64,000 nucleotides of DNA from a virus, in IMG/VR virus record IMGVR_UViG_3300032313_001465, positions 32,001 to 96,000 of that record. One strand, 5' to 3'. A program made the position numbers and the translations under genes. Shown one piece after another: positions 4,916 through 43,526 of this stretch. The notes beneath the pieces are model-generated. The model searched no databases and was not told the origin of the DNA. It saw nothing but the letters and a program-made list of their open reading frames with translations. The first letter of the stretch is position 1, and each line of letters opens with the position of its first letter.

Positions 4916-5623
4916 ATGAAAAAAACACTAACACAAATCGCAAATTCAATTGGAATTGATAAAGGAACAATTACAAATTCATGCCATGGATTTACAAAAA
5001 TGTATGATGATATATTAACTCCTTTAAGAGAAAAATCTATTATTATGTTAGAAATAGGAGTATCTGGGGGCGGTTCTCTTAAAATGTGGGAAGAATATTT
5101 TTCGGATGCTATAATTATTGCTCTAGACATTGTTAATGAGACTCATTTATCAAATGATAAAACTTTTGTTTACCAATTAGATCAATCTGATGAAACTCAA
5201 TTACAAAATTTTGTAAATCAATGTAAAGAAAACGGATACGAATTTGATTTTATTATTGATGATGGAAGTCACCATATGCAAGATCAACAATTAACATTAG
5301 CTTATCTCTTTCCATTATTAAAGTCTCAAGGAATATATGTTATAGAAGATCTCCATACATCTTTACTTCCTAATGGTTATCCATTATACGGAAAACTTAC
5401 AGAAATCTTCCCGGATAGATATAATACTACATTAAATTATCTTTCTCATGGTGTAGATAGTATTTATATTACTGCAGAACAAAATATATATTTAAATAAA
5501 AATATTGATTCTATTAATATACATAATATATTTAATCCTATTATAGATACATGGCATGAATCTTTAGGTGTAGGAAAACCATATATGGGAAGAAGCATAA
5601 CATCATTTATAATTAAAAAATAA
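4916..5623 (+). CDS. Class I SAM methyltransferase (MycE/demethylmacrocin-like)
   Basis: DKG...H.F...Y, LEIGVSGGGSLKMW, FDFIIDDGSH, GIYVIEDL. Confidence 0.85.
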   Translation: MKKTLTQIANSIGIDKGTITNSCHGFTKMYDDILTPLREKSIIMLEIGVSGGGSLKMWEEYFSDAIIIALDIVNETHLSNDKTFVYQLDQSDETQLQNFVNQCKENGYEFDFIIDDGSHHMQDQQLTLAYLFPLLKSQGIYVIEDLHTSLLPNGYPLYGKLTEIFPDRYNTTLNYLSHGVDSIYITAEQNIYLNKNIDSINIHNIFNPIIDTWHESLGVGKPYMGRSITSFIIKK

Positions 5624-7686: not shown

Positions 7687-7998
7687 ATGGAAGAGGTAAA
7701 AGTAAGAAAACCAAAGGAGTTAGTTATTAATTATAATAATGAGACTGATTTGAATGAACTATGCACTTCAGATGTATTTTCAGATTTCATATTAAGTGAA
7801 ACCTTAGAAGCAATAGAAGAAGCTATTGAAACTAACAAAACCGAAGCACATATAATTAATATATCCAACTATAGATTTAAAATTACTATTAATAGAGAAC
7901 AATTTGAATCAGCTATCAATAGTGTTTTGAAAAAATATGAGAAAGAGGAAAATTATGATAAGTGTATTTATTTAACTCAATTAATAAAAAAGATATGA
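7687..7998 (+). CDS. Hypothetical protein with C-terminal UVR-like ExYxxC motif
   Basis: EKEENYDKC; ATATTTAT motif upstream. Confidence 0.6.
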   Translation: MEEVKVRKPKELVINYNNETDLNELCTSDVFSDFILSETLEAIEEAIETNKTEAHIINISNYRFKITINREQFESAINSVLKKYEKEENYDKCIYLTQLIKKI

Positions 7999-8159
7999 AC
8001 GAAGAATACGGGTTTTTTTCCAAGAGTGATGATAAACAAGAGATTATTTATAAAGCAAAAAGTATAAGTAAAAGAGATGCTATTGAATTATTTGCTCGAA
8101 TAAAAAATTTAACTATCGATATTTTTAAATCATTATATTCTGTAATTAAAATACGATAA
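7995..8159 (+). CDS. Hypothetical protein
   Basis: ATG at 7995 overlapping previous stop. Confidence 0.5.
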   Translation: MNEEYGFFSKSDDKQEIIYKAKSISKRDAIELFARIKNLTIDIFKSLYSVIKIR

Positions 8160-8638
8160 TGGACCCAAAGAAAAATATTCAAGAATTACTCCAACAAATT
8201 ATTGGAGCTAAGATTACTTTAGAAGAACACACTATAGATAGTGATAAAGAAATATTTTGTAATATTTTAGAATCATGGGTCGCATCTTGGGAAAAACAAC
8301 AATATATCTATGAACTATATCAAATCGATCTTCAAGGTTATGATGAAAGTTTATATGAAATAATTGATGCTTTTGTTATGTTGTATTTTAAAAACTCTAG
8401 ACTGTCTGATTTAATATTATGGTATGTTTATGAGAGGAAAAATATATTTGGTGGAGAAGAAGAATATGCTAAATTATACAATTCAAAAAGCGATAAAGAA
8501 ATAGACATCACCACTCCCGAGAAATTCTGGGATCTAATCCAGGAAATTATAAATAATACTGTTAAAGTAGATGACCTGGAAGTTATTGGGTTAGAAGAGG
8601 AAGATGAAGATGATGAGGATGATGAAGAGGAAGAATAA
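8159..8638 (+). CDS. Hypothetical acidic protein with poly-D/E tail
   Basis: Ends EEEDEDDEDDEEEE. Confidence 0.7.
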   Translation: MDPKKNIQELLQQIIGAKITLEEHTIDSDKEIFCNILESWVASWEKQQYIYELYQIDLQGYDESLYEIIDAFVMLYFKNSRLSDLILWYVYERKNIFGGEEEYAKLYNSKSDKEIDITTPEKFWDLIQEIINNTVKVDDLEVIGLEEEDEDDEDDEEEE

Positions 8639-9291
8639 TGAGAGTAAAACATATAACTAAAGAGGATTGCTTACGAGCAATGAGACATACTAAATCAAAT
8701 AGAGCGGCTGCTCGGTATTTAGGAGTATCATATCAACACTATAGAAAATTTGCTTTATTATATAAAAATGAAGAAGGCAAATCCCTTCTAGATGTACATT
8801 CTAACCCGTCAGGTAAAGGTATAAGAAAATTTGTTACGGATCCTAATAAACACCCCCATTCCAAACAAGAGATAGCAATGGTTGACTTGATGGAAGGAAG
8901 AATAGATCCATCCCACTATACTGCTAAAAGAATAAAAACTAGACTAATTAATGATGGTATTCTAAAAGATGAATGCTATAGGTGTGGCTTTCATGAATAC
9001 CGAGTAGTAGATTACAAAATACCATTAGTATTACATTTTAAAGACAAAAATAAACGAAATTTCGGAGTAGATAACTTGGAACTGTTGTGTTATAATTGTT
9101 ATTTTCTTTATGTTACTGATTTATTCAATACCAAAGACCTATCAGCATTAGAAGATAATTTAGATGTAACATTCAAAACCTCGGAACATGTTGAATTAGA
9201 ATTAGATGAATATAACTTACAGAAGTTAAGAGAATTAGGATTAATGGATGATAAACCTGAAGATGGTTCTGAATTTATTTCTAGAACATAA
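8638..9291 (+). CDS. HTH plus HNH-like zinc-finger protein
   Basis: SNRAAARYLGVS HTH; CYRC...LHFKDKNKRN..DNLELLCYNC. Confidence 0.65.
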   Translation: MRVKHITKEDCLRAMRHTKSNRAAARYLGVSYQHYRKFALLYKNEEGKSLLDVHSNPSGKGIRKFVTDPNKHPHSKQEIAMVDLMEGRIDPSHYTAKRIKTRLINDGILKDECYRCGFHEYRVVDYKIPLVLHFKDKNKRNFGVDNLELLCYNCYFLYVTDLFNTKDLSALEDNLDVTFKTSEHVELELDEYNLQKLRELGLMDDKPEDGSEFISRT

Positions 9292-9308
9292 TATTTATTG
9301 TAAAATAG

Positions 9309-9467
9309 ATGGCTAAGCATAAAAAACATGACAAAATCGTCTCCGACTATTCAGCCCAAAAACAAAAACACTTAGAAAAACTAGCAACTCAACTTTTAAA
9401 ACAAGATGAAACAAATCAGAAATTAAAAGAGAAACAAATTAATCCTAACTTCCTAAATTTATTTTAA
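9309..9467 (+). CDS. Small basic hypothetical protein (52 aa)
   Basis: MAKHKKHDKIV...FLNLF*, preceded by ATATTTAT, stop overlaps next ATG; not in ORF track. Confidence 0.6.
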   Translation: MAKHKKHDKIVSDYSAQKQKHLEKLATQLLKQDETNQKLKEKQINPNFLNLF

Positions 9468-9772
9468 TGAGTGTTTATAAAATTAAAGTCAATACTTTAG
9501 AGGAATGGGAGAACATAGTGAAAGATCAAAATTATGATGTATCAAAAGCTGTTGTTAATAAAATATTAGAAAATCTCCACACTAAAAAACGATTTATCCC
9601 AATATTAGAAATTGAAATAAATGATAATGGGGAAATTTATGATATTACTCTAGACAGAAAAAATATGTTAAATACTCTTCAAGTAAATTTAAAAATATTT
9701 GAAAAATATGAAGATTATGAAGGATGTGATAGCATTATAAAAGCTATTAATACCATATCATCTAAACGTTAG
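9467..9772 (+). CDS. Hypothetical protein with UVR-like C-terminus
   Basis: EKYEDYEGC; resembles 7687 ORF. Confidence 0.6.
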   Translation: MSVYKIKVNTLEEWENIVKDQNYDVSKAVVNKILENLHTKKRFIPILEIEINDNGEIYDITLDRKNMLNTLQVNLKIFEKYEDYEGCDSIIKAINTISSKR

Positions 9773-9778
9773 TGCAAG

Positions 9779-9844
9779 GCGTCATGTAAGCGTCATACGA
9801 AATGGTTGGCAAATCGAAACCCCATTCGTATATTGATTGCACAA
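9779..9844 (+). promoter_or_regulatory. 66-bp early promoter element, copy 1
   Basis: GCGTCAT-N4-GCGTCAT-N9-TTGGC-N15-TCGTATATTGA. Confidence 0.85.
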
Positions 9845-9858
9845 GAAAAATAAAGGTT

Positions 9859-9966
9859 ATGAAAAATACATTAAAAATTATCGTAGGTTCGTTATTAGTA
9901 ATGTCAATAATCGGTGGTTCAATCGCCGCATTATGGATAATCGCAATATTGCAAGGTAATATATAA
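9859..9966 (+). CDS. 35-aa membrane peptide
   Basis: MKNTLKIIVGSLLVMSIIGGSIAALWIIAILQGNI*, directly behind promoter copy 1; resembles the 25915 ORF. Confidence 0.65.
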   Translation: MKNTLKIIVGSLLVMSIIGGSIAALWIIAILQGNI

Positions 9967-9967
9967 G

Positions 9968-10033
9968 ACGTCATACCTACGTCATACGAGAAGGTTGGCA
10001 AATCGAAACACCGTTCGTATATTGACGTATAAT
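9968..10033 (+). promoter_or_regulatory. 66-bp early promoter element, copy 2
   Basis: ACGTCAT-N4-ACGTCAT...TTGGC...TCGTATATTGACGTATAAT. Confidence 0.85.
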
Positions 10034-10052
10034 AAAAATTAAAATAAAAAAT

Positions 10053-10292
10053 ATGAAATTTACATTTAAAACAAAAGCGAGCTACAACGCAGCATGTAGA
10101 ACTGGTAGAATTGACCATTATGATATGGTAAGAATTGTTAGAAAATTGAAAAACGGAGATGAGTGGGATATTCCAACTCATAGTGAAGAAGAATTCAATG
10201 AATTAATGGACAAATGGAAAAAAGATCCAAATGTGGTTGAGATAACTCACTATCCAGATGTATCATTTTATGACTTAGAAGAGTACTTGTAG
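10053..10292 (+). CDS. Hypothetical protein
   Basis: ORF behind promoter copy 2. Confidence 0.65.
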   Translation: MKFTFKTKASYNAACRTGRIDHYDMVRIVRKLKNGDEWDIPTHSEEEFNELMDKWKKDPNVVEITHYPDVSFYDLEEYL

Positions 10293-10297
10293 GGAAG

Positions 10298-10329
10298 TTT
10301 GGCTTCCCAGGAAACCTGTATTATATTTA
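10298..10329 (+). promoter_or_regulatory. Bacteroidota-type -33/-7 promoter without GTCAT repeats
   Basis: TTTG-N20-TATATTTA upstream of DUF932 gene; similar sites at 42571-42602, 60762-60793 and about 39805-39835. Confidence 0.55.
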
Positions 10330-10366
10330 CTGCATAGGAAAAATTAATAAAATAAAAATTTTAAAA

Positions 10367-11167
10367 ATGTTAGACATCAACAACGGTCAATTTAAGACAC
10401 AAAACGAATTGAAAAAATTAGCCCCTTCAATTTTTACCAAAACGGGTTCGGATAGTACATCTGAAAAATACATTCACATTTCAACTGATAGAGTTATCCA
10501 AGATATGGAAACTTTGGGATGGGGTGTGGTGGATGCTAAGGAAGTAAAAGCCCGTAAACAAGTAGGGTTCCAAAAACACTTAGTTGTATTTAGAAACAAT
10601 GATATCATGGTTACAGGTAATGATGGAGATGTTGTATATCCACAAATCCTATTAACAAATTCTCATGATGGAAAAAATGCATTTACGTTTACTGCTGGAA
10701 TGTTCCGAATGATTTGTGAGAATGGTTTAGTGGTTTCTACTCAGGAATTTGAGAATATGAAGATCCGTCATTATGGTTACAATTTTGAAACATTACAAGG
10801 AACTATTAAAAACATTGTGGAAGCATTACCTTTAACAGTTGAATCTATGAATAGATTTAAGGGGATTGAACTTGAGCAAGAACAAGCCATTGAGTTTGCT
10901 AAACGTGCTGTTGGTTGTCGTTTTACTGAAGAAGAAATTGAAAATGTAAAAATTGATTGGGAGGATTTATTGACACCAACACGTCCCGAAGATCGTGGAA
11001 CCGATTTGTGGAGTGTATTTAATGTGGTTCAAGAGAAATTGGTACATGGTATGTTTAATTACAAGGCTGGTGGTAAGAATAGAAAAGCCCGTAAAATTAA
11101 GAACTTTAAACAAGATATAGTTTTAAATGAGAAACTTTGGGAAGTAGCTGAAGAATTTTGTAATTAG
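10367..11167 (+). CDS. DUF932 (TIGR03299-like) phage/plasmid protein
   Basis: NSHDG, GMFRMICENGL, RH, DLWSVFNVVQE. Confidence 0.85.
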   Translation: MLDINNGQFKTQNELKKLAPSIFTKTGSDSTSEKYIHISTDRVIQDMETLGWGVVDAKEVKARKQVGFQKHLVVFRNNDIMVTGNDGDVVYPQILLTNSHDGKNAFTFTAGMFRMICENGLVVSTQEFENMKIRHYGYNFETLQGTIKNIVEALPLTVESMNRFKGIELEQEQAIEFAKRAVGCRFTEEEIENVKIDWEDLLTPTRPEDRGTDLWSVFNVVQEKLVHGMFNYKAGGKNRKARKIKNFKQDIVLNEKLWEVAEEFCN

Positions 11168-11174
11168 AAATTAA

Positions 11175-11287
11175 TAACCTGTACCCTTGAAAAACTCGTA
11201 TTAGTAATGACAATACCCTGAGCGTGAGTATATAACCGTTGGTTAAAACATTATGAGATAAGCAGGTTAGTTCGAAATAAAAGGGTA
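11175..11287 (+). ncRNA. Candidate pseudoknotted ncRNA
   Basis: TAACCTGT/GCAGGTTA, CTCGTA/TATGAG, TAACC/GGTTA, TACCCT(T)/(A)AGGGTA. Confidence 0.35.
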
Positions 11288-11304
11288 AGAGAATAAGAAC
11301 AAAT

Positions 11305-11382
11305 GGTCAGGTATGGTAGACACAGTAGGGAGAGCCAAAGAGGTATCTACTAAAGTTACAGGTTCGATTCCTGTCCTGACTA
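11305..11382 (+). ncRNA. tRNA-framed RNA 1 (no canonical anticodon arm)
   Basis: GGTCAGG/CCTGACT acceptor, ACAGG-TTCGATT-CCTGT T-arm, GGTAGAC D-like segment, inner AGTAG/CTACT stem. Confidence 0.65.
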
Positions 11383-11397
11383 CAATAAAATAAAAGT

Positions 11398-11487
11398 ATG
11401 AATAAAGAAGAAAAACAACAGCATTTGATAGTTTGGGTCATAATAGGAATACCTTTATTAGCTTTACTTTATTGTTTATTAACATAA
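11398..11487 (+). CDS. 29-aa membrane peptide between two tRNA-framed RNAs
   Basis: MNKEEKQQHLIVWVIIGIPLLALLYCLLT*. Confidence 0.5.
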   Translation: MNKEEKQQHLIVWVIIGIPLLALLYCLLT

Positions 11488-11490
11488 CAT

Positions 11491-11594
11491 AGTCAGGTGG
11501 TGTAATAGAGGCAACACGTGGTTCGAGTCCACAATCTATCTAGTAACGATAGATGCTGATAGGAGCGATACAGGTTCGATTCCTGTCCTGACTA
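11491..11594 (+). ncRNA. tRNA-framed RNA 2 (three inner hairpins, extra T-arm-like hairpin)
   Basis: AGTCAGG/CCTGACT; D-arm GTGT/ACAC; GTGG-TTCGAGT-CCAC; TCTATC/GATAGA; GCT/AGC; T-arm ACAGG-TTCGATT-CCTGT. Confidence 0.7.
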
Positions 11595-11623
11595 CTAAAT
11601 TAAATAACTTAAAAAATAAAAAT

Positions 11624-11905
11624 ATGTTAAAAATCGAAGACAAACCAAATTACTTTCTTATAGTAACTCCTGGAGTATATGATGGTCATGAGTTTAATAT
11701 TCTTGACACGGATAAAGGATTATACATCATGTTTAAAGACTATTACGAAAAGGACCCACAATCATTCAATGATATCCAGGAAGAAATTAAAAGCCAGTAT
11801 TTAAACACTAGAGTATCAGGATTAGATGTTGGTTGTAAGTTTAATATGGCTGGTGGCTTTGAACAAGATATTTTTGAAGAATTTGTACGTTACAATGATA
11901 AATAG
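11624..11905 (+). CDS. Hypothetical protein
   Basis: ORF with A-rich leader. Confidence 0.6.
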   Translation: MLKIEDKPNYFLIVTPGVYDGHEFNILDTDKGLYIMFKDYYEKDPQSFNDIQEEIKSQYLNTRVSGLDVGCKFNMAGGFEQDIFEEFVRYNDK

Positions 11906-12191
11906 AGAATTTAGATTTTTAGATGCTCGTACTAGCGTTAGTGAGTTAGTAAAGGAGTCGGCTGTTAATTTCATGTATGGATTTATTGCTAACACAATCA
12001 CTGTGTTTGTAATTATGAAATATGATATTGCAGTGTTGATTAATTTTCTAATATATTATATGTTTGTGAGTATAGTTATTAATAGAGACAAGTATGAAAC
12101 CCGAGTAGGAAAATACATGATATTTCCAGCTGCCGCTGCATTAGGAGCATTTGTTGGATACAAATTAGCATTCTTTCTTTCACTAAAATAA
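11895..12191 (+). CDS. Membrane protein (about 3 TM)
   Basis: Hydrophobic segments; ATG at 11895 preferred. Confidence 0.6.
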   Translation: MINREFRFLDARTSVSELVKESAVNFMYGFIANTITVFVIMKYDIAVLINFLIYYMFVSIVINRDKYETRVGKYMIFPAAAALGAFVGYKLAFFLSLK

Positions 12192-12217
12192 TTTATTAAT
12201 ATTTATTATAAAATGAT

Positions 12218-12655
12218 ATGGTAAAATTAATAGATATCCTAAATGAAATAGGAGATGCTACATCCAAAAAGTATGATTGGAAGGAAGTTTATAATAATGG
12301 ATATATTGATGAACCAGATGGGGAATCTGAATATGAATTTAAAACCGATTCGGGTATTGAATATGGTGTTCAAATCCATAATATTGGGAAATATTTGGAT
12401 GTTGATTTTGTAGCTGATGGTACTTATGATGAAGTAAATAAAGGAGAGGTTTTTAGTGTGATGGCTACTATTGTCGATATTATAAAAAGCATAGTAGATA
12501 AAGGAGGAATTAAAGGAATTAGATATATAGCTAAATCCAAAGGGAATGATGCTGGTATTGCAAGAGATAGATTATATAGAATATATATTTCAAAACTATA
12601 CCCTAATGTCACTTTTCTACAACAAGGTGGAACAATATTCGCTACACTTAAATAA
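12218..12655 (+). CDS. Hypothetical protein with MVKLIDILNE leader (probable virion-internal)
   Basis: Leader shared with 62558 and 63316; ATATTTAT at 12199. Confidence 0.6.
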   Translation: MVKLIDILNEIGDATSKKYDWKEVYNNGYIDEPDGESEYEFKTDSGIEYGVQIHNIGKYLDVDFVADGTYDEVNKGEVFSVMATIVDIIKSIVDKGGIKGIRYIAKSKGNDAGIARDRLYRIYISKLYPNVTFLQQGGTIFATLK

Positions 12656-12667
12656 AATAAAATAAAA

Positions 12668-12946
12668 ATGCCAAGTTTTACAGAATACCAAGACGTTGAG
12701 ATGGAAATCGAAATCGATCCATCAGATTACTTAGATAGTTGCAGTGATGATGACATAGATGAACTAATTGAAGAATTAGTGGAAAGAGGTTTCATTAAGA
12801 ATAATGACATAATTGACCAATCAGCATTATCAAATAATCTTGATTTCGTTCAAAATATTATGAAATTAGCTAATCCATACAATCGTATGCTTCTAACAGT
12901 AGAAGAGGAGCAGATTTTGGAAAAAATGGCTAGTAGATTTTTATAA
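12668..12946 (+). CDS. Acidic hypothetical protein
   Basis: ORF track. Confidence 0.6.
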   Translation: MPSFTEYQDVEMEIEIDPSDYLDSCSDDDIDELIEELVERGFIKNNDIIDQSALSNNLDFVQNIMKLANPYNRMLLTVEEEQILEKMASRFL

Positions 12947-12952
12947 TACGAG

Positions 12953-13018
12953 ACCTCATAGCTGAGTCATACGAAATGGTTGGCAAATCCAAATAACGTT
13001 TGTATATTGATGTATAAT
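12953..13018 (+). promoter_or_regulatory. 66-bp early promoter element, copy 3
   Basis: Same spacing; precedes DNA ligase. Confidence 0.8.
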
Positions 13019-13033
13019 TAAAAAATAAAGGTT

Positions 13034-14107
13034 ATGAAATTATCAACACTGTATTCTAGGTCGGTAAACGGCAAGATAAATACATTTACAATTCACATTG
13101 AAGGAAACAAGTATTATACTGTAACTGGATTTTTAGATGGAGTTAAAACTCAATCCCTCCCAACAGTATGTAATGCCAAAACGTATTGTACTGCTGAAGA
13201 GCAAGCAATAAAAGAGGCCACAGCAATTCATCGAAAGAAAATGGAAAGCGGTTCATTTGAAAATGTTTCCGATATTGATAATGAGACATTTTTTGAACCG
13301 ATGCTCGCTCACGATTTCAATAAGGAAAAGCACAAAATCAAATATCCCCTTTATAGTCAACCGAAACTAGATGGTATCCGTTGTTTGGTGAAACGAGACG
13401 GAATGTGGTCAAGAACAGGCAAACCAATAATTTCAGCCCCACACATATTTGAAGCGTTAAAACCATTATTTGAAATTAATCCAAATCTTATATTTGATGG
13501 AGAGTTATATGCTGATAAATTTGCAACCGACTTTAACGCTATATGTTCCTTAGTAAAGAAAACAAAACCAACTCAGCAAGATTTAGAAGATAGTTCTAAA
13601 GCTATTGAATATCACATTTATGATTTACCAAGTTGTAGTGGTGTGTTTTCTGATAGATATGAAGTATTACTTGAATTAATTTTGCCAAAATGTTGTAAAT
13701 TAGTTGAAACCCGCATTGCTAATAATGAAACTGAACTAATGGCTTATTATGAGAACTATGTTGTTAACAACTATGAAGGACAAATGGTTCGTTTAAATAG
13801 CAAATATGAAAATAAAAGATCAAAGTCCTTACTTAAGCACAAGTCATTTATTGATGAAGAATATACAATTTTAGATATTGAAGAAGGAATTGGGAATAAA
13901 AGTGGGATGGTAGGAGCATTTGTATTTGAAAATAGAGATGGTAAACGCTTTAAAGCTAGTCCTAAATTTAATTGGGAAGAATGTACAAAAATGTGGAATA
14001 CAAAACACCAACTAATCGGAAAAACAGCAACAGTTAAATATTTCAACCTAACTCCAGATCATATACCGAGATTTGGATATGTGATTCAGGTAGATCGTTG
14101 GTATTAG
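13034..14107 (+). CDS. ATP-dependent DNA ligase
   Basis: EPMLA, QPKLDGIR, DGELY, YDL, YEGQMVR, KRSKSLLK, OB domain ending PRF. Confidence 0.95.
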   Translation: MKLSTLYSRSVNGKINTFTIHIEGNKYYTVTGFLDGVKTQSLPTVCNAKTYCTAEEQAIKEATAIHRKKMESGSFENVSDIDNETFFEPMLAHDFNKEKHKIKYPLYSQPKLDGIRCLVKRDGMWSRTGKPIISAPHIFEALKPLFEINPNLIFDGELYADKFATDFNAICSLVKKTKPTQQDLEDSSKAIEYHIYDLPSCSGVFSDRYEVLLELILPKCCKLVETRIANNETELMAYYENYVVNNYEGQMVRLNSKYENKRSKSLLKHKSFIDEEYTILDIEEGIGNKSGMVGAFVFENRDGKRFKASPKFNWEECTKMWNTKHQLIGKTATVKYFNLTPDHIPRFGYVIQVDRWY

Positions 14108-27777: not shown

Positions 27778-28236
27778 ATGAAAAATCAATTAATCCAAGT
27801 ATTAAACAGTGATATCCAAAGTGATGTGTTTTATGGTTCATTCCGTACCAAAGTAAAAGGTAAATATATTACAGTAAATGTATCTAACCACATTAAAGAC
27901 ACTACCAAAAAATATGAATTCAGAGCCGCATTCAAATGTAGAGCAGGATTCGTATCAATAGGTGATTATAATACAATACCATATGATGTTATTTCAAGAT
28001 GGGGCCATAATAACCTAATAAACGTTCAGGTGAAATCTGAAGGTGGGAATTGGTTTGATGTTTATACTACCAAAGGTGGTAAATGGTATTCAATTGATAA
28101 AGGATTTTTAGATGTTTTAACAGTTGGAATTATGAGAACATCATTCCCTGATATGTGTGATTATCATATTTGGGAAATTATGGACGCCAAAACATGGGCC
28201 GATAAAGCGTTTACACCAAACGTCATGGTTGCGTAA
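27778..28236 (+). CDS. Hypothetical protein
   Basis: Behind promoter copy 8. Confidence 0.7.
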   Translation: MKNQLIQVLNSDIQSDVFYGSFRTKVKGKYITVNVSNHIKDTTKKYEFRAAFKCRAGFVSIGDYNTIPYDVISRWGHNNLINVQVKSEGGNWFDVYTTKGGKWYSIDKGFLDVLTVGIMRTSFPDMCDYHIWEIMDAKTWADKAFTPNVMVA

Positions 28237-28285
28237 TATAAAAAATTTGGCGAAGCGGAATAGTGTTCGTATATTGATGTATAAT
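28220..28285 (+). promoter_or_regulatory. 66-bp early promoter element, copy 9
   Basis: ACGTCAT-N4-GCGTAAT... Confidence 0.8.
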
Positions 28286-28299
28286 AAAAAATTAAGAAA

Positions 28300-28521
28300 A
28301 TGATAAACGCAAAAACAAAAGCAGGAGAATTAGTATTAAAATTCATGAGGTTACAAGAACCTAATTATAATTGGTTCAATACAAGGTTAGCAGTAAAATG
28401 TGCTTTAATAACAGTTGATGAAATGTTAAATAACCCAAAGAACAATATGATGGATTTATCTGAGGAACTCCATGATGAATTTTGGAATGCAGTTAGAACA
28501 GAAATTAACCTTATTAAATAA
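28300..28521 (+). CDS. Hypothetical protein
   Basis: KAxEL...AxxCALITVDE...W..V..EI. Confidence 0.7.
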   Translation: MINAKTKAGELVLKFMRLQEPNYNWFNTRLAVKCALITVDEMLNNPKNNMMDLSEELHDEFWNAVRTEINLIK

Positions 28522-28522
28522 G

Positions 28523-28588
28523 TAGTCACATCTAAGTCATATGAAAAATTTGGCGAAGCGGAACAGTGTTCGTATATTGATGTATAAT
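28523..28588 (+). promoter_or_regulatory. 66-bp early promoter element, copy 10
   Basis: TAGTCAC-N4-AAGTCAT... Confidence 0.8.
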
Positions 28589-28602
28589 AAAAAAATAAAA
28601 AC

Positions 28603-28824
28603 ATGGCAACATTAATTAAAAAAGCAGTAGTACCAAAAATACAAGACATTCATAAATTCGAAATTGGTGAAGTGGTTGAATGGAGTAAACAATTCCATGA
28701 TGGCCGTAGTTATGAAACATGGAAATATTCAGGTGAGATTATCCGAATTAATCCTAAAACAGTTACTGTAGAGGATAGTAGTGGTAATATCTGGAGAGTA
28801 GGATATAAAGAAATTATTTTATAA
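28603..28824 (+). CDS. Small SH3/KOW-like protein
   Basis: FEIGEVV...GEIIRINPKTVTV...WRV. Confidence 0.6.
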   Translation: MATLIKKAVVPKIQDIHKFEIGEVVEWSKQFHDGRSYETWKYSGEIIRINPKTVTVEDSSGNIWRVGYKEIIL

Positions 28825-28890
28825 GTGTCATAACTAAGTCATACCGAAGGGTTGGCAGTTGTAAAAATGGTTTGTATATTGATGTATAAT
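28825..28890 (+). promoter_or_regulatory. 66-bp early promoter element, copy 11
   Basis: GTGTCAT-N4-AAGTCAT... Confidence 0.8.
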
Positions 28891-28915
28891 TAAAAATTAA
28901 ATAAAAATAAAGGTT

Positions 28916-29386
28916 ATGTTTAAAGAAAGTAAAAAAATGGGTGAAGCAGTAAGAGCAGGTTCAGAACGTAGAGGTAGACCAGTTAAATCTGATAGTGCCC
29001 GTCAAATGAGATTAAATAAATTTGCTGAGTTAAAAGCAAATGGTATAGTAGTTAAAAGAGGTAGACCAGCTAAAGTAGTGGATCCAAATGCCCCGGTAAT
29101 TGTTAAAACACCTAAGGTTAAGGTACCTAAAGAACCTAAGGCGAAAAAAGCGAAATCAAGCGAGGTAAAAACGGAACCAACAGTTGTGTTGAGTGAGGGT
29201 GTAAACCATAAGACCGTTTCTCATCCAACAGGTAAACCAGTTACTTATATCCGTTCTCCTTATATAGTACAAGCAGCTGGTAAAGGATTTGAGGACGTAG
29301 CTCAAGACGGTGAATTAGAAATTGAAGATATCATTGTGGATGAGTTCGTTCCAAATGAAGATGATATTGCTGAATTAGAAGCATAG
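28916..29386 (+). CDS. AT-hook DNA-binding protein with acidic tail
   Basis: RRGRP, KRGRP, PK repeats, acidic C-terminus. Confidence 0.7.
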   Translation: MFKESKKMGEAVRAGSERRGRPVKSDSARQMRLNKFAELKANGIVVKRGRPAKVVDPNAPVIVKTPKVKVPKEPKAKKAKSSEVKTEPTVVLSEGVNHKTVSHPTGKPVTYIRSPYIVQAAGKGFEDVAQDGELEIEDIIVDEFVPNEDDIAELEA

Positions 29387-29473
29387 TATTGCTGAGAGAT
29401 AAAGAAGTAAATATATGGAAGAAGTGAGGTTAAGTCCCAACATAGTACATTAATGCTCAGTAATAAAATATAT

Positions 29474-29570
29474 AGTCAGGTGGCGCAATTGGTAGACGTT
29501 GTTCCTCTGTACAAGGAATGTAAAACGAGGTGATCCTCGTAGTATACAGGTTCAAATCCTGTCCTGACTA
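29474..29570 (+). ncRNA. tRNA-framed RNA 3 (Tyr-GTA-like loop on a 7-bp stem, long variable arm)
   Basis: AGTCAGG/CCTGACT; GCG-CAATTGGTAGA-CGT; TGTTCCT-CTGTACA-AGGAATG; ACGAGG-TGAT-CCTCGT; ACAGG-TTCAAAT-CCTGT. Confidence 0.75.
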
Positions 29571-29604
29571 CAATTGTTGTGTTATTTTTAGTAATAAAAT
29601 ATAT

Positions 29605-29733
29605 AGTCAGGTGGCGAGTTGGAACACGCACCGAAACATTGACGTAAAAACTTTCTGACAGAAGTACAACGGAGTATCTGCTTTATCAATGTGCTGATGG
29701 ATACTATCACAGGTTCAAGTCCTGTCCTGACTA
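29605..29733 (+). ncRNA. tRNA-framed RNA 4 (129 nt)
   Basis: Same acceptor/T-arm; GCG/CGC D-arm; CCG/CGG and AGTATCTG/TGGATACT inner stems; loop-loop ACATTGA/TCAATGT complement. Confidence 0.75.
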
Positions 29734-29766
29734 CAATTGTTGTGTTATTTTTTATTATTGGTAATA

Positions 29767-29968
29767 GGGTCCTGCCATTAAATGGACCCCGACCGGCTGT
29801 ATTGGGATGGAAGCGTCCGCCTACATGCCGCTTTTTAAAAAACAACTTATGAAGTCTTCCGCACCGTAGTTGTTACTTACCATTTCGCTCATTGCGCAGC
29901 GCCGGAGGTAGGGTTGTTAGACGGAGTGAGGAGCAACACGGGATAGGCCGGGGCCAAACGTTGGTCCC
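29767..29968 (+). ncRNA. Candidate GC-rich structured ncRNA
   Basis: GGGTCC/GGACCC; nested CCGGC/GCCGG, CGTC/GACG, CCTAC/GTAGG, AACAACT/AGTTGTT; GGGCCAA/TTGGTCC. Confidence 0.45.
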
Positions 29969-30009
29969 TTGCCTCTCCCTTTTAATGTCATCAATTAATT
30001 AATTATATA

Positions 30010-30267
30010 ATGAAAGTAAGAGCAAATTACTTAAACCGAAGTGCGAAACAAGCATTTTACACAGCACGTAAACGTAGTGGAGATGTTACTCGTATTGCTG
30101 AGGCAACCGGTTATTCAACATCACACATTTCAAATGTGATGTCAGGCCGAAGAAACGTTAATGATATTATTGCCAATGAAATGTACAATATATCAAGACG
30201 TAGAATGAAGAATAGTGATAAACCAGAGATGGTAGATTACGATTTTGAATTCGTAGTATCGTGGTAG
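30010..30267 (+). CDS. XRE/Cro-like HTH DNA-binding protein
   Basis: VTRIAEATGYSTSHISNVMSGRR. Confidence 0.75.
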   Translation: MKVRANYLNRSAKQAFYTARKRSGDVTRIAEATGYSTSHISNVMSGRRNVNDIIANEMYNISRRRMKNSDKPEMVDYDFEFVVSW

Positions 30268-30307
30268 GATAGGACAACGTACTTAGTAGGATAGGACTAC
30301 GTACTTA
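30264..30307. repeat. 22-bp tandem repeat x2
   Basis: GTAGGATAGGAC(A/T)ACGTACTTA. Confidence 0.85.
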
Positions 30308-30588
30308 GAACGTATGAGGTACTTGGGTGGGCGTATCGTACGGTCGCCCAGGTACGTTATATGCTCCCACGTGCGCCGTTATCCATCGATACGGCGGGCG
30401 ACGGAAAAGGTGCTTACATGTCCAAACCCATCGCATACGATCTCTCCACATCGATCTCATATATCCATATATATACAACATATGTAATCTATAATTTCCA
30501 AAATACCATTTCACGGCATTTTCACAACCCCACAACCCCTTCTTTTTATAACCCCTTTCACGTCGATAAACATATATACTTATATAAA

Positions 30589-30654
30589 GCGTCATGTAAG
30601 TGTCATATAAAATACTTGGCATCTCCAAATTTCGTTCGTATATTGATGTATAAT
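30589..30654 (+). promoter_or_regulatory. 66-bp early promoter element, copy 12
   Basis: GCGTCAT-N4-GTGTCAT... Confidence 0.85.
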
Positions 30655-30667
30655 AAAAAACGTAAAA

Positions 30668-31961: not shown

Positions 31962-32084
31962 GTTGGGGTGGCGGAATAGTAGACGCAAATACATCCAGTT
32001 ATAGGGACTGAATTTCAAGTACGGTATCACTTTAGATATTAAGAAATGAAAAAACTAATGCAGGTGCAAGTCCTGTTCCCAACG
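31962..32084 (+). ncRNA. tRNA-framed RNA 5 (different acceptor stem, G discriminator)
   Basis: GTTGGGG/TCCCAAC; GCG-GAATAGTAGA-CGC; CAGTT/GACTG, GGTATC/GATATT; GCAGG-TGCAAGT-CCTGT. Confidence 0.65.
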
Positions 32085-32099
32085 CTAAAAACAAATAAA

Positions 32100-32321
32100 A
32101 TGAAAAACGAAAAAACAACATCAACCGGATTTGGACTTGGGACCGTCCTATTCTTAATATTTTTGGTCCTTAAACTAACTGGAGTTGGAATAGTAGCTAC
32201 TTGGTCGTGGTGGTGGGTTTTATCCCCTCTTTGGATTCCTATAGTAATTACTCTCGGTATACTTATTTGTGTATTAGTATTTGTTAGTTTGTTAGCATTA
32301 ATAGGAGCATTATTATCATGA
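32100..32321 (+). CDS. Small membrane protein (LKLxGxxxWSWWWVxxPLW family)
   Basis: ATG 32100; characteristic motif. Confidence 0.75.
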   Translation: MKNEKTTSTGFGLGTVLFLIFLVLKLTGVGIVATWSWWWVLSPLWIPIVITLGILICVLVFVSLLALIGALLS

Positions 32322-32830
32322 AAAAAACAGCAATAAAAACATTTATGGATTGGTTCGCAACTGAATCAAACGCGGTAAAAACATTAACGGATAGTAATAT
32401 CCAAGAAATTAATCAAAAGCTTAATCAATTACTTGACGTAGAAAAAGAATTTTTACAAGAAGTTCATAGAGATGGTATTGGATATCAAAGATATAATAGA
32501 AAGTGGGGCAATGTAAGTACTGATGAAATTTGCGATAATTATAATAAATAATACGATATGGCAGGAAAAATAGCAGAATTCAAGTTAGGAAATATAAATG
32601 TAATGGGAGTGTTCCGCCACAAATGGGACTCACCAGAAAACTTATATACTACGATACATGAATATAAAACAAAGGAACTTGGTATATTCTACAGAAAAGA
32701 TATGTGTCTTCATATAGGTAGAAAAAACCCAAAATATAATCTATATCCTTCTATCATGTTAGGTCTAAACTTAATATGGGCGAAATGTTGGATACAAATC
32801 AACTATAATATACACCACTCAGAAGTGTAG
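32318..32830 (+). CDS. Two hypothetical proteins (32318-32551, 32558-32830)
   Basis: ORF track. Confidence 0.55.
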
Positions 32831-39849: not shown

Positions 39850-39923
39850 GCTGCGTTAGGCAAATTGGTTAAGCCGCTACCCTTTCACGGTAGAAATTGA
39901 GGGTTCGAGCCCCTTACGCAGTA
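39850..39923 (+). tRNA. tRNA-Glu (TTC)
   Basis: GCTGCGT/ACGCAGT; CTACC-CTTTCAC-GGTAG; GAGGG-TTCGAGC-CCCTT. Confidence 0.92.
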
Positions 39924-39931
39924 CTTTTTAT

Positions 39932-40003
39932 TGCCCTTTCGTCTAATTGGCAGGACAAATGATTTTGGTTCATTAAATTGGAGTTCGAATCTCTGAGGGG
40001 CAA
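39932..40003 (+). tRNA. tRNA-Gln (TTG)
   Basis: TGCCCTT/AGGGGCA; AATGA-TTTTGGT-TCATT; TTCGAAT T-loop. Confidence 0.9.
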
Positions 40004-40008
40004 CATAT

Positions 40009-40084
40009 CGCGGGATAGGGCAGTTGGTAGCCCGCTAGGCTCATAACCTAGAGGTCGTGGGTTCGAATCCCACTCCCGCAACCA
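40009..40084 (+). tRNA. tRNA-Met (CAT), initiator type
   Basis: C1:A72 mismatch, CTAGG-CTCATAA-CCTAG, encoded CCA. Confidence 0.92.
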
Positions 40085-40482: not shown

Positions 40483-40858
40483 GGGGGTGTCAAGGCATCG
40501 ATTGGCAGTCGTAGTTTTTTAGATGCAGGCAGGATAAGATGGAAATCCTTATAAGACTATCAAACAACAACCGCAGTAGAATTATCTACAATGACCTTCG
40601 AAGATGCAATGTCTTTTGTTGGTGCTGACTTAGCAGTAGCTGCCTAGTCGCTCCCGTATCACTCACGGGACTTAAAAAAGAAGTGAAGCTCAGGTGGAAA
40701 AGTGATTGAACCTAAAAATCGAATCACCTATTGTTTGTTGGTTGCCGATGGTAAAGAACCAACCGAATATTTTGTTAGTTAAGAAAAACTGACTAAGCCT
40801 GTGAATGAGTCTAAGAAATTAGCTGAGCAAGACGGAGATTCGAATTCTCCCACCTCCA
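40483..40858 (+). ncRNA. ssrA: tmRNA
   Basis: GGGGGTG/CACCTCC acceptor with G3:U70, GGAGA-TTCGAAT-TCTCC T-arm, tag ORF 40573-40647 AVELSTMTFEDAMSFVGADLAVAA*. Confidence 0.92.
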
Positions 40859-40863
40859 CAAAT

Positions 40864-42848: not shown

Positions 42849-43526
42849 ATGAAATTAGCCCAAGAAAAACCATTAGAAGGTGTTATTTATATAACAACAA
42901 ATTTAATTAATGGGAAAAAATATATTGGGTCGGATTCTAATAATGATAAATATTATTATGGTTCAGGGGTTAATTTAAAACTAGCAATTAAGAAATATGG
43001 AAAATCTAACTTTAAAAAAGATATTTTATGTTATTGCCCCTTAGATAAATTAAGGGAAATGGAAGAATATTACTGTCACTATTATAATGTAGAGAAAAGT
43101 CAACTATTTTATAATTGTACTAATAAAGGGTTAGGTTCAATAAAAGGAATTCCTCATAAAAGAAATAAAAAAGTGTTGCAGTATGATTTACAAGGTAATT
43201 TCCTTCAGGAGTGGGATTCATATACTGATGTATGTAGTAAATTAAATATTAAAACATTAGGATCTGCTTTAAAAGGAGAACAAAAAACTGCAGGTGGGTT
43301 TATTTGGAAATATAAAACAAATGAAGACTTTCCAAAAGTAATATCATCCTTTAAAGATGATAGACTTAAAGATAAACCTATATTACAAATTGATTCAAAT
43401 GGTATTGTGATTAATGAATTTTATTCAATGTGGGAAACTAGAAAAACATTTAAAGAACCTTCTAATATACGAAATGCTTTAATAAAAGGATGTAAAGCTT
43501 ATAATTTTTATTGGAAATTTAAATAA
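42849..43526 (+). CDS. GIY-YIG homing endonuclease with NUMOD1-type domains (Seg-like)
   Basis: VIYITTNLINGKKYIG, YYGSG, FYN; QYDLQG...AGGFIWKY repeats. Confidence 0.88.
   Translation: MKLAQEKPLEGVIYITTNLINGKKYIGSDSNNDKYYYGSGVNLKLAIKKYGKSNFKKDILCYCPLDKLREMEEYYCHYYNVEKSQLFYNCTNKGLGSIKGIPHKRNKKVLQYDLQGNFLQEWDSYTDVCSKLNIKTLGSALKGEQKTAGGFIWKYKTNEDFPKVISSFKDDRLKDKPILQIDSNGIVINEFYSMWETRKTFKEPSNIRNALIKGCKAYNFYWKFK

Follow-up and report, generated by a model that had tools for sequence, protein, structure and literature searches.

What could produce two adjacent tRNA-like units whose flanks are nearly identical and whose interiors are unrelated? The locus that raises this question lies in a stretch of 64,000 nt (the window), bases 32001-96000 of a complete IMG/VR phage record of 148,581 bp with direct terminal repeats. 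The source is a large lake phage, a metagenome-assembled genome; the window has a G+C content of ~30% and nearly all genes lie on its + strand. A preliminary description had reported a 5' block of 27 nt without differences, a 3' block of 44 nt that differs at one position, the reach of both blocks outside the tRNA shape and the absence of evident similarity between the interiors, and each of these observations was borne out. In a repeat search the 5' block at 29459-29485 matched 29590-29616 over 27 nt at 100%, with a start-to-start spacing of the repeated blocks of 131 nt, and the 3' block at 29546-29589 matched 29709-29752 over 44 nt at 98%, the single mismatch falling in the T-loop. The 5' and 3' blocks are different sequences and are mutually complementary, forming the two halves of one tRNA fold through the acceptor stem. 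Beyond the tRNA shape they add a leader of 15 nt (29459..29473, identical to its repeat at 29590..29604) and a trailer of 19 nt (29571..29589, beginning with C74 and identical to 29734..29752), all on the + strand. A 25-nt motif from the 3' part of this shell occurs four times in the window and never in 100 shuffles. The enclosed interiors, at 29486-29545 in unit A (60 nt) and 29617-29708 in unit B (92 nt), align no better than shuffled sequence (semi-global score 8 versus 5.2 +/- 1.9, with 10.5% of shuffles as good; local score 10 versus 7.7 +/- 1.5, with 12% as good).

The pair is situated in an early-type region in which small genes follow repeated promoter-like elements, between a gene for 156 aa (28916-29386) and one for 85 aa (30010-30267) with a weak helix-turn-helix match. 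The promoter-like element (~74 nt; TTGGCA, 17 nt, TATATT) is present in four copies, at 28218-28896 and 30587-30660, with a spacing of ~303 nt, and each copy precedes a small gene, giving the early region a cassette-like appearance. The units themselves are intergenic on the coding strand, and no promoter or terminator of their own was detected. Between the trailer of unit B and the 85-aa gene lies a G+C-rich structured stretch (29753..30009, + strand) that is partly conserved and has three conserved hairpins; RNAalifold on four orthologues gave 21 pairs, five of them with a compensatory change, and an Rfam search of the stretch gave no match. It may or may not belong to the transcript or function of the pair. 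At the stop codon of the 85-aa gene a tandem 22-nt repeat begins (30264-30307, 95% identical), and after it comes a second G+C-rich block. The genome has only three canonical tRNAs, a Glu, Gln, Met cluster at 39850-40084, plus one phage-encoded tmRNA directly after it (40483-40861; RF00023, 67.3 bits).

Both units have the same shell, composed of a 7-bp acceptor stem, U8, a D-arm, a 5-bp T-stem, a canonical T-loop and a discriminator A, and the D-arm type is that of genuine tRNA-Leu genes in related phages; unit A matches this type, and unit B has a variant D-loop. The 148.6-kb phage encodes five such units. In addition to A and B there is a first copy at 11305..11382 (+ strand, 78 nt, truncated D region), a second at 11491..11594 (+ strand, 104 nt, scoring 38.5 bits against the Rfam tRNA model), in which a T-loop-like hairpin takes the place of the anticodon arm, and a fifth at 31962..32084 (+ strand, 123 nt), which combines a Leu-type D-arm with a different acceptor stem and discriminator G. 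The spacer between the first two copies is filled by a hydrophobic mini-ORF of 29 aa (11398-11487). Other mini-ORFs were seen in related phages, a 47-aa ORF between the two units of the locus L271 and a 74-aa ORF that ends at the start of the first unit of L126.

The shell is not confined to this phage. A 24-nt 3' shell motif was found in at least 120 IMG/VR contigs, and among the matches listed there were 162-173 distinct units of 54-191 nt. The acceptor stem, discriminator A and T-arm are common to shell units across phages at the nucleotide level, while the interiors, of 20-140 nt, are folded, unrelated between most members and placed where the anticodon and variable arms would be; 204 non-redundant units fell into 173 interior clusters, 150 of them singletons. 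Comparative evidence shows the predicted shell RNA to be under structural selection at the RNA level, because the acceptor and T stems show compensatory changes in members that share the interior type of unit B. Among 185,579 prokaryotic species genomes the 3' shell motif gave 27 matches, mostly in Bacteroidota and all on MAG contigs, and the shell is therefore a phage feature and not a host tRNA or attachment site, a reading that we also rejected on the conservation of the 5' half. A MITE-like element was rejected as well, as there is no target-site duplication and the conserved D and T arms would be superfluous for one. Rfam holds no family for the shell RNAs, the GenBank phage collection gave no match to the locus (only chance matches of 24-26 nt at E<=1), and a literature search found no description of the family. 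A 2026 preprint on bacterial tRNA mimics covers the skipping-rope, DUF2693-FD and salivarius-1 RNAs and not the shell family. In one of the phage loci, L129, a GOLLD RNA (5007-5431; RF02032, 272 bits) neighbours a large tRNA cluster as well as two shell units.

The ends of the units resemble those of the tRNA genes around them. T is found at position -1 in 83% of shell units, A at -2 in 71% and C at 74, a position that lay outside the search pattern for the units, in 98%; CCA is not encoded. The corresponding values for 384 canonical tRNAs of the same loci are 69%, 62% and 94%, with CCA encoded in only 22. The true tRNA genes of these phages thus have an unusual gene-end signature that the units share, in which CCA is almost never encoded and C74 and the -1 T are kept. 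From the match at -1 T and C74 it follows that the units occupy the gene context of real phage tRNAs. Bacterial RNase P would find favourable contacts in a U at -1 and in C74. Judging by these end signatures, shell units are probably handled by the enzymes of tRNA 5' and 3' maturation. Aminoacylation is a further consideration. For Aquifex aeolicus LeuRS, leucylation is possible without the anticodon arm, and A73 is critical, as is the core of U8-A14, G18-U55 and G19-C56 (PMC2377443). Because a bacterial LeuRS can dispense with that arm, it is conceivable by analogy that shells of the Leu type are charged with leucine.

Unit A (29474..29570, + strand, 97 nt) places an interior of two hairpins in its tRNA-Leu-type shell. 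The first resembles an anticodon arm, with a 5-bp stem and a 7-nt loop, CUGUACA, that contains U33, G34-U35-A36 and a C at position 37; the second, of 6 bp, occupies the place of a long variable arm. With its GUA anticodon-like loop and long variable arm the interior recalls bacterial tRNA-Tyr. The fold has a z-score of -3.1, the RF00005 score is 36.8 bits (threshold 29 bits), and ARAGORN returned tRNA-???. In a canonical anticodon arm a stem of 5 bp carries a 7-nt loop with U33 and, at position 37, a purine. Unit A departs from this in C37; its score also lies below those typical of functional tRNAs. Rfam tRNA scores of clearly anticodon-less shell units are 35-47 bits, and most canonical tRNAs of the same loci reach ~48-71 bits. 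Because 36.8 bits lies within the band of the anticodon-less units, we do not take unit A as a proven decoding tRNA. ARAGORN called a tRNA in 32/162 real units compared with 16-18/162 units with shuffled interiors; most of its calls on the units are a chance product of the perfect shell, with a modest real excess. As regards leucine identity, unit A has A73, U8, A14, GG and the T-loop. No relative of its interior was found; it was a singleton in the interior clustering, and a 17-nt word from the anticodon-like arm matched only coding DNA in IMG/VR. The loop includes UGU, the minimal motif recognised by tRNA-guanine transglycosylases (TGT). A QueC homologue (99 bits) is encoded outside the window, at 12564-13208 of G000:C1, and the phage genome gave no match to the TGT family; a queuosine link for unit A is speculation.

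Unit B (29605..29733, + strand, 129 nt) has the same tRNA-Leu-type shell around an interior for which relatives could be compared. It lacks an anticodon arm and gave no Rfam match at E<=1. Interiors of this type (B-type) were found in 10 contigs, enclosed every time by the shell and associated with three acceptor-stem variants. They consist of a 3-bp stem, a variable hairpin, a 6-bp helix resembling a variable arm and a possible 7-bp loop-loop pseudoknot. When eight members were aligned, pairing in the proposed structure reached 97.6%, compared with 30-40% in slid controls; four pairs show compensatory change, including one position of the variable-arm-like helix with three pair types, and compensatory changes are seen in the acceptor and T stems. 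At the inner hairpin, four different hairpins substitute for one another. The 7-bp loop-loop pairing and the 3-bp stem are invariant among the aligned members and stand as unproven proposals of the structural model, in which the B-type module is probably knotted. As judged from the aligned members, the B interior is a conserved structured module with compensatory changes and not filler. The D-loop of unit B is a variant conserved within the type. Leucylation of unit B appears doubtful, because this D-loop has G, not A, where A14 is expected. A hammerhead ribozyme, brought to mind by GAAAC and by a sequence close to the CUGAUGA core, was rejected by inspection: stem I is missing, the would-be cleavage position is G, the core is imperfect and Rfam is silent.

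How the two interiors came to occupy the same frame was examined by comparing orthologous loci in related phages, the check that the preliminary description had proposed, and different interiors and unit numbers were found between the same flanks. Four related versions of this intergenic slot hold one or two units and have no interior in common. The L126 slot, whose flanking proteins are 82-85% identical in amino acids, has units of 126 nt and 75 nt set 82 nt apart; L271, with an upstream gene 89% identical in nucleotides and the same sequence before the leader, has two other units on either side of its 47-aa ORF; and L272, with an upstream gene 83% identical in nucleotides, has one unit of ~72 nt directly after the stop codon. 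The looser relative L129/L130 (next gene 69% identical in amino acids; units of 111 nt and 151 nt that precede that gene by 630-1,120 nt) was left out of the four versions, and its interiors differ too. The window and L271 are collinear up to 29498, which is 25 nt into unit A, and again from 29709, the first base of the T-arm of unit B. At a second site, the window and L164 (~90% identical in nucleotides) are collinear over 7871-11312 and 11612-13748, and the unaligned gap is exactly the block of the first and second copies. Since the interiors differ and the breaks fall inside the shells, the interiors were replaced and did not drift, in line with the earlier view that duplication plus drift was unlikely and that interiors had been swapped by recombination between conserved shells.

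Whole units also recur elsewhere. Unit B is identical over 133/133 positions in L147 and L148 and has two differences in L152, in each case with unrelated flanks. The L148 copy adjoins a homologue of window positions 32314-32829 that is only 79.5% identical, and in the source phage this is the slot of the fifth copy. A three-sequence comparison placed the exchange points of unit B within ~15 nt at each end. Across the units compared, interior identity reaches at least 95% in 20 pairs drawn from different loci, and at least one flank is unrelated in 15/20. These identical units among unrelated flanks further supported the swapping proposed in the preliminary description. On the evidence of the alignments, units are shown to have been exchanged like cassettes between phages, apparently as whole units placed in other slots.

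We consider it rather probable, overall, that both units are genes of a small-RNA family, widespread in phages and uncatalogued, in which a tRNA-Leu chassis carries exchangeable structured cargo. The shell would be the top half of a class II leucine tRNA, with the 7-bp acceptor stem, Leu-type D-arm, T-arm and discriminator A, and the exchangeable module would sit between D-arm and T-arm. RNase P and the enzymes of tRNA 3'-end maturation would excise the units from the early transcript, and CCA would then be added; the shell would act as a chassis for processing and stability that LeuRS could possibly charge, with the interior as the part that does the work. The near-invariant shell sequence could also provide the homology arms for cassette replacement between co-infecting phages. 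A more tentative extension of this proposal is that the shells serve as the chassis for a phage-borne library of small, structured effector RNAs that is shuffled by recombination and might include, for instance, decoys or aptamers directed at host factors or defences, with the frame giving processing, stability and perhaps charging, and its DNA acting as homology arms that let cassettes hop between slots and phages.

The layout of the locus, leader-A-trailer-leader-B-trailer, could have arisen by either of two routes. A 131-nt segment of leader, unit and trailer may have been duplicated and one interior then replaced, or an unequal crossover may have taken place between two genomes in which A and B were allelic; both routes require cassette replacement between shell sequences, and for unit B the crossovers would be confined to ~15 nt per side. 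Ancestrally the leader belongs with the first unit of the slot, and its first copy has an orthologue ahead of the first unit in L271; the trailer belongs with the last unit, the position of its second copy here: it follows the last unit in L272 (identical), L271 (one difference) and L126 (three differences). For this reason, duplication with replacement of one interior is the simplest origin for the tandem. The double-strand breaks for exchange might, as a speculation from analogy, come from SegE-like nucleases of the type of a GIY-YIG homing-endonuclease-like ORF at 42849-43526, which lies ~2 kb downstream of the tRNA/tmRNA cluster with a borderline score of 25.8 bits (cut-off 25). In T4, segB drives preferential inheritance of its tRNA-cluster region. 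This gene lies in the T4 tRNA cluster directly beside the rnaC/rnaD pair. Two points count against shell-guided exchange, however. Homology arms of ~15 nt are short for classical homologous recombination, and the whole early region is mosaic, so that some of the turnover may be general mosaicism.

Several other explanations were weighed against this proposal. Shells might be mere processing punctuation, RNase P/Z signals that cut a polycistronic early transcript as plant-mitochondrial t-elements do, with neutral filler inside. Such elements are documented (PMC1920247), and the intergenic position on the coding strand with no promoter or terminator of the units' own detected, the mini-ORFs between units (29 aa at 11398-11487 and 47 aa in L271) and the flanking context shared with true tRNAs would all suit this role. 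The B-type interior, however, is conserved in 10 contigs and shows compensatory changes, unit B remains 100% identical beside genes that are only ~80% identical, and stable inheritance is also seen for other interior types, across phages with 64-70% identity in the flanking protein; this is not the behaviour of neutral filler, and we regard punctuation as unlikely. We hold it to be more doubtful still that the locus is an ordinary duplicated tRNA pair made up of a functional tRNA-Tyr(GUA), unit A, and a degenerate or intron-bearing copy, unit B. The stem, 7-nt loop, U33, G34-U35-A36 and long variable arm of unit A are indeed as in bacterial tRNA-Tyr, its score passes the Rfam tRNA threshold (36.8 versus 29 bits), and the ARAGORN excess (32/162 versus 16-18/162) implies that some members keep anticodon-like arms. 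Against this, unit A has C37 and was returned as tRNA-???, its score falls in the anticodon-less range of 35-47 bits, as does that of the second copy at 38.5, and not in the ~48-71 of most canonical tRNAs, its shell is of the Leu type and not the Tyr type, and unit B, with no anticodon arm, has an interior that is conserved and structured, not decayed.

Very improbable, in our assessment, is an assembly artefact in which two strain variants of one slot were falsely joined in tandem. The source is a metagenome-assembled genome, the exact trailer-leader junction was not found in any other assembly, and a metagenome scan with the leader plus the start of the shell gave no match. Yet alleles with shared flanks would produce a bubble in the assembly graph, whereas the tandem needs real words joining the end of a trailer to the start of a leader; two-unit slots are normal in the relatives L126, L271 and L129, the record is closed at 148.6 kb with terminal repeats, and the leader or trailer of the pair was recovered from this slot in two independent metagenome contigs. 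Unit B, too, recurs in independent contigs without a single changed letter, which lends the assembly indirect support. The comparison with a repeat-spacer mini-array, made in the preliminary description on account of the tandem constant flanks around unrelated interiors, did not hold, as the blocks are halves of one tRNA fold that pair as an acceptor stem and not one direct repeat. Nor did array-like acquisition of new interiors: the interiors are folded, vary from 20 to 140 nt and recur between phages with covariation, unlike uniform unstructured spacers, units also occur alone or separated by genes, and there is no sign of acquisition machinery, with 0/28 scanned ORFs matching a Cas or integrase family. 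A CRISPR-like array that actively acquires interiors is thus scarcely credible.

Comparison with known RNAs places the tRNA-Leu chassis with exchangeable cargo between several systems. Class II tRNA-Leu (RF00005), including the genuine genes of related phages, shares the 7-bp acceptor stem, U8, the D-arm type of tRNA-Leu(UAA/UAG), a T-arm with a TTCRANT loop, discriminator A and the -1 T/C74 context. The units differ from it in having no usable anticodon arm (none in B, C37 in A), in their unrelated modules of 20-140 nt and in Rfam scores within the 35-47 bit band, below most true tRNAs. The T4 species 1 RNA (rnaC) and rnaD are likewise tandem small stable non-decoding RNAs beside tRNA genes, and rnaC combines a large folded interior with a canonical T-arm and a short terminal stem at its end. 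The search of the phage collection revealed no sequence similarity to them, however, and they have no Leu-type D-arm; only the T-arm architecture of rnaC is shared, its terminal stem is weak and rnaD has no T-arm. To our knowledge, cassette-like turnover of rnaC and rnaD has not been described. The tRNA-like domain of tmRNA also keeps acceptor stem and T-arm, lacks the anticodon and has a functional module between the halves, but the units have no tag ORF, no tmRNA pseudoknot set and no RF00023 match, and their identity type is Leu, not Ala. The t-elements are similar as tRNA-like folds between genes that act as RNase P/Z signals; they are not known to have a conserved cargo, whereas the phage interiors form conserved sub-families with covariation.

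A parallel also comes from the laboratory. Ponchon and Dardel reportedly engineered tRNA scaffolds for recombinant RNA in 2007. In such a scaffold the cargo RNA takes the place of the anticodon arm and is processed and stabilised by the cell as a tRNA; the scaffold is a laboratory design, whereas the phage shells are natural, multi-copy and exchanged between phages. If our reading of the shells is correct, they would be a natural precedent for tRNA-scaffold RNA expression. The pair itself is a clean natural example of exchange, with identical flanks, unrelated interiors, one interior unchanged elsewhere and four alternative fillings of the slot. For phage annotation, the consequence is that tRNA finders miss shell units or label them as odd tRNAs. 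On our reading, many uncultured phages, probably of freshwater Bacteroidota, would have a large pool of small RNAs, so far unannotated, that share one tRNA frame and are traded as cassettes, and, should the effector-library reading also be true, this pool would be an RNA-gene counterpart of integron cassettes.
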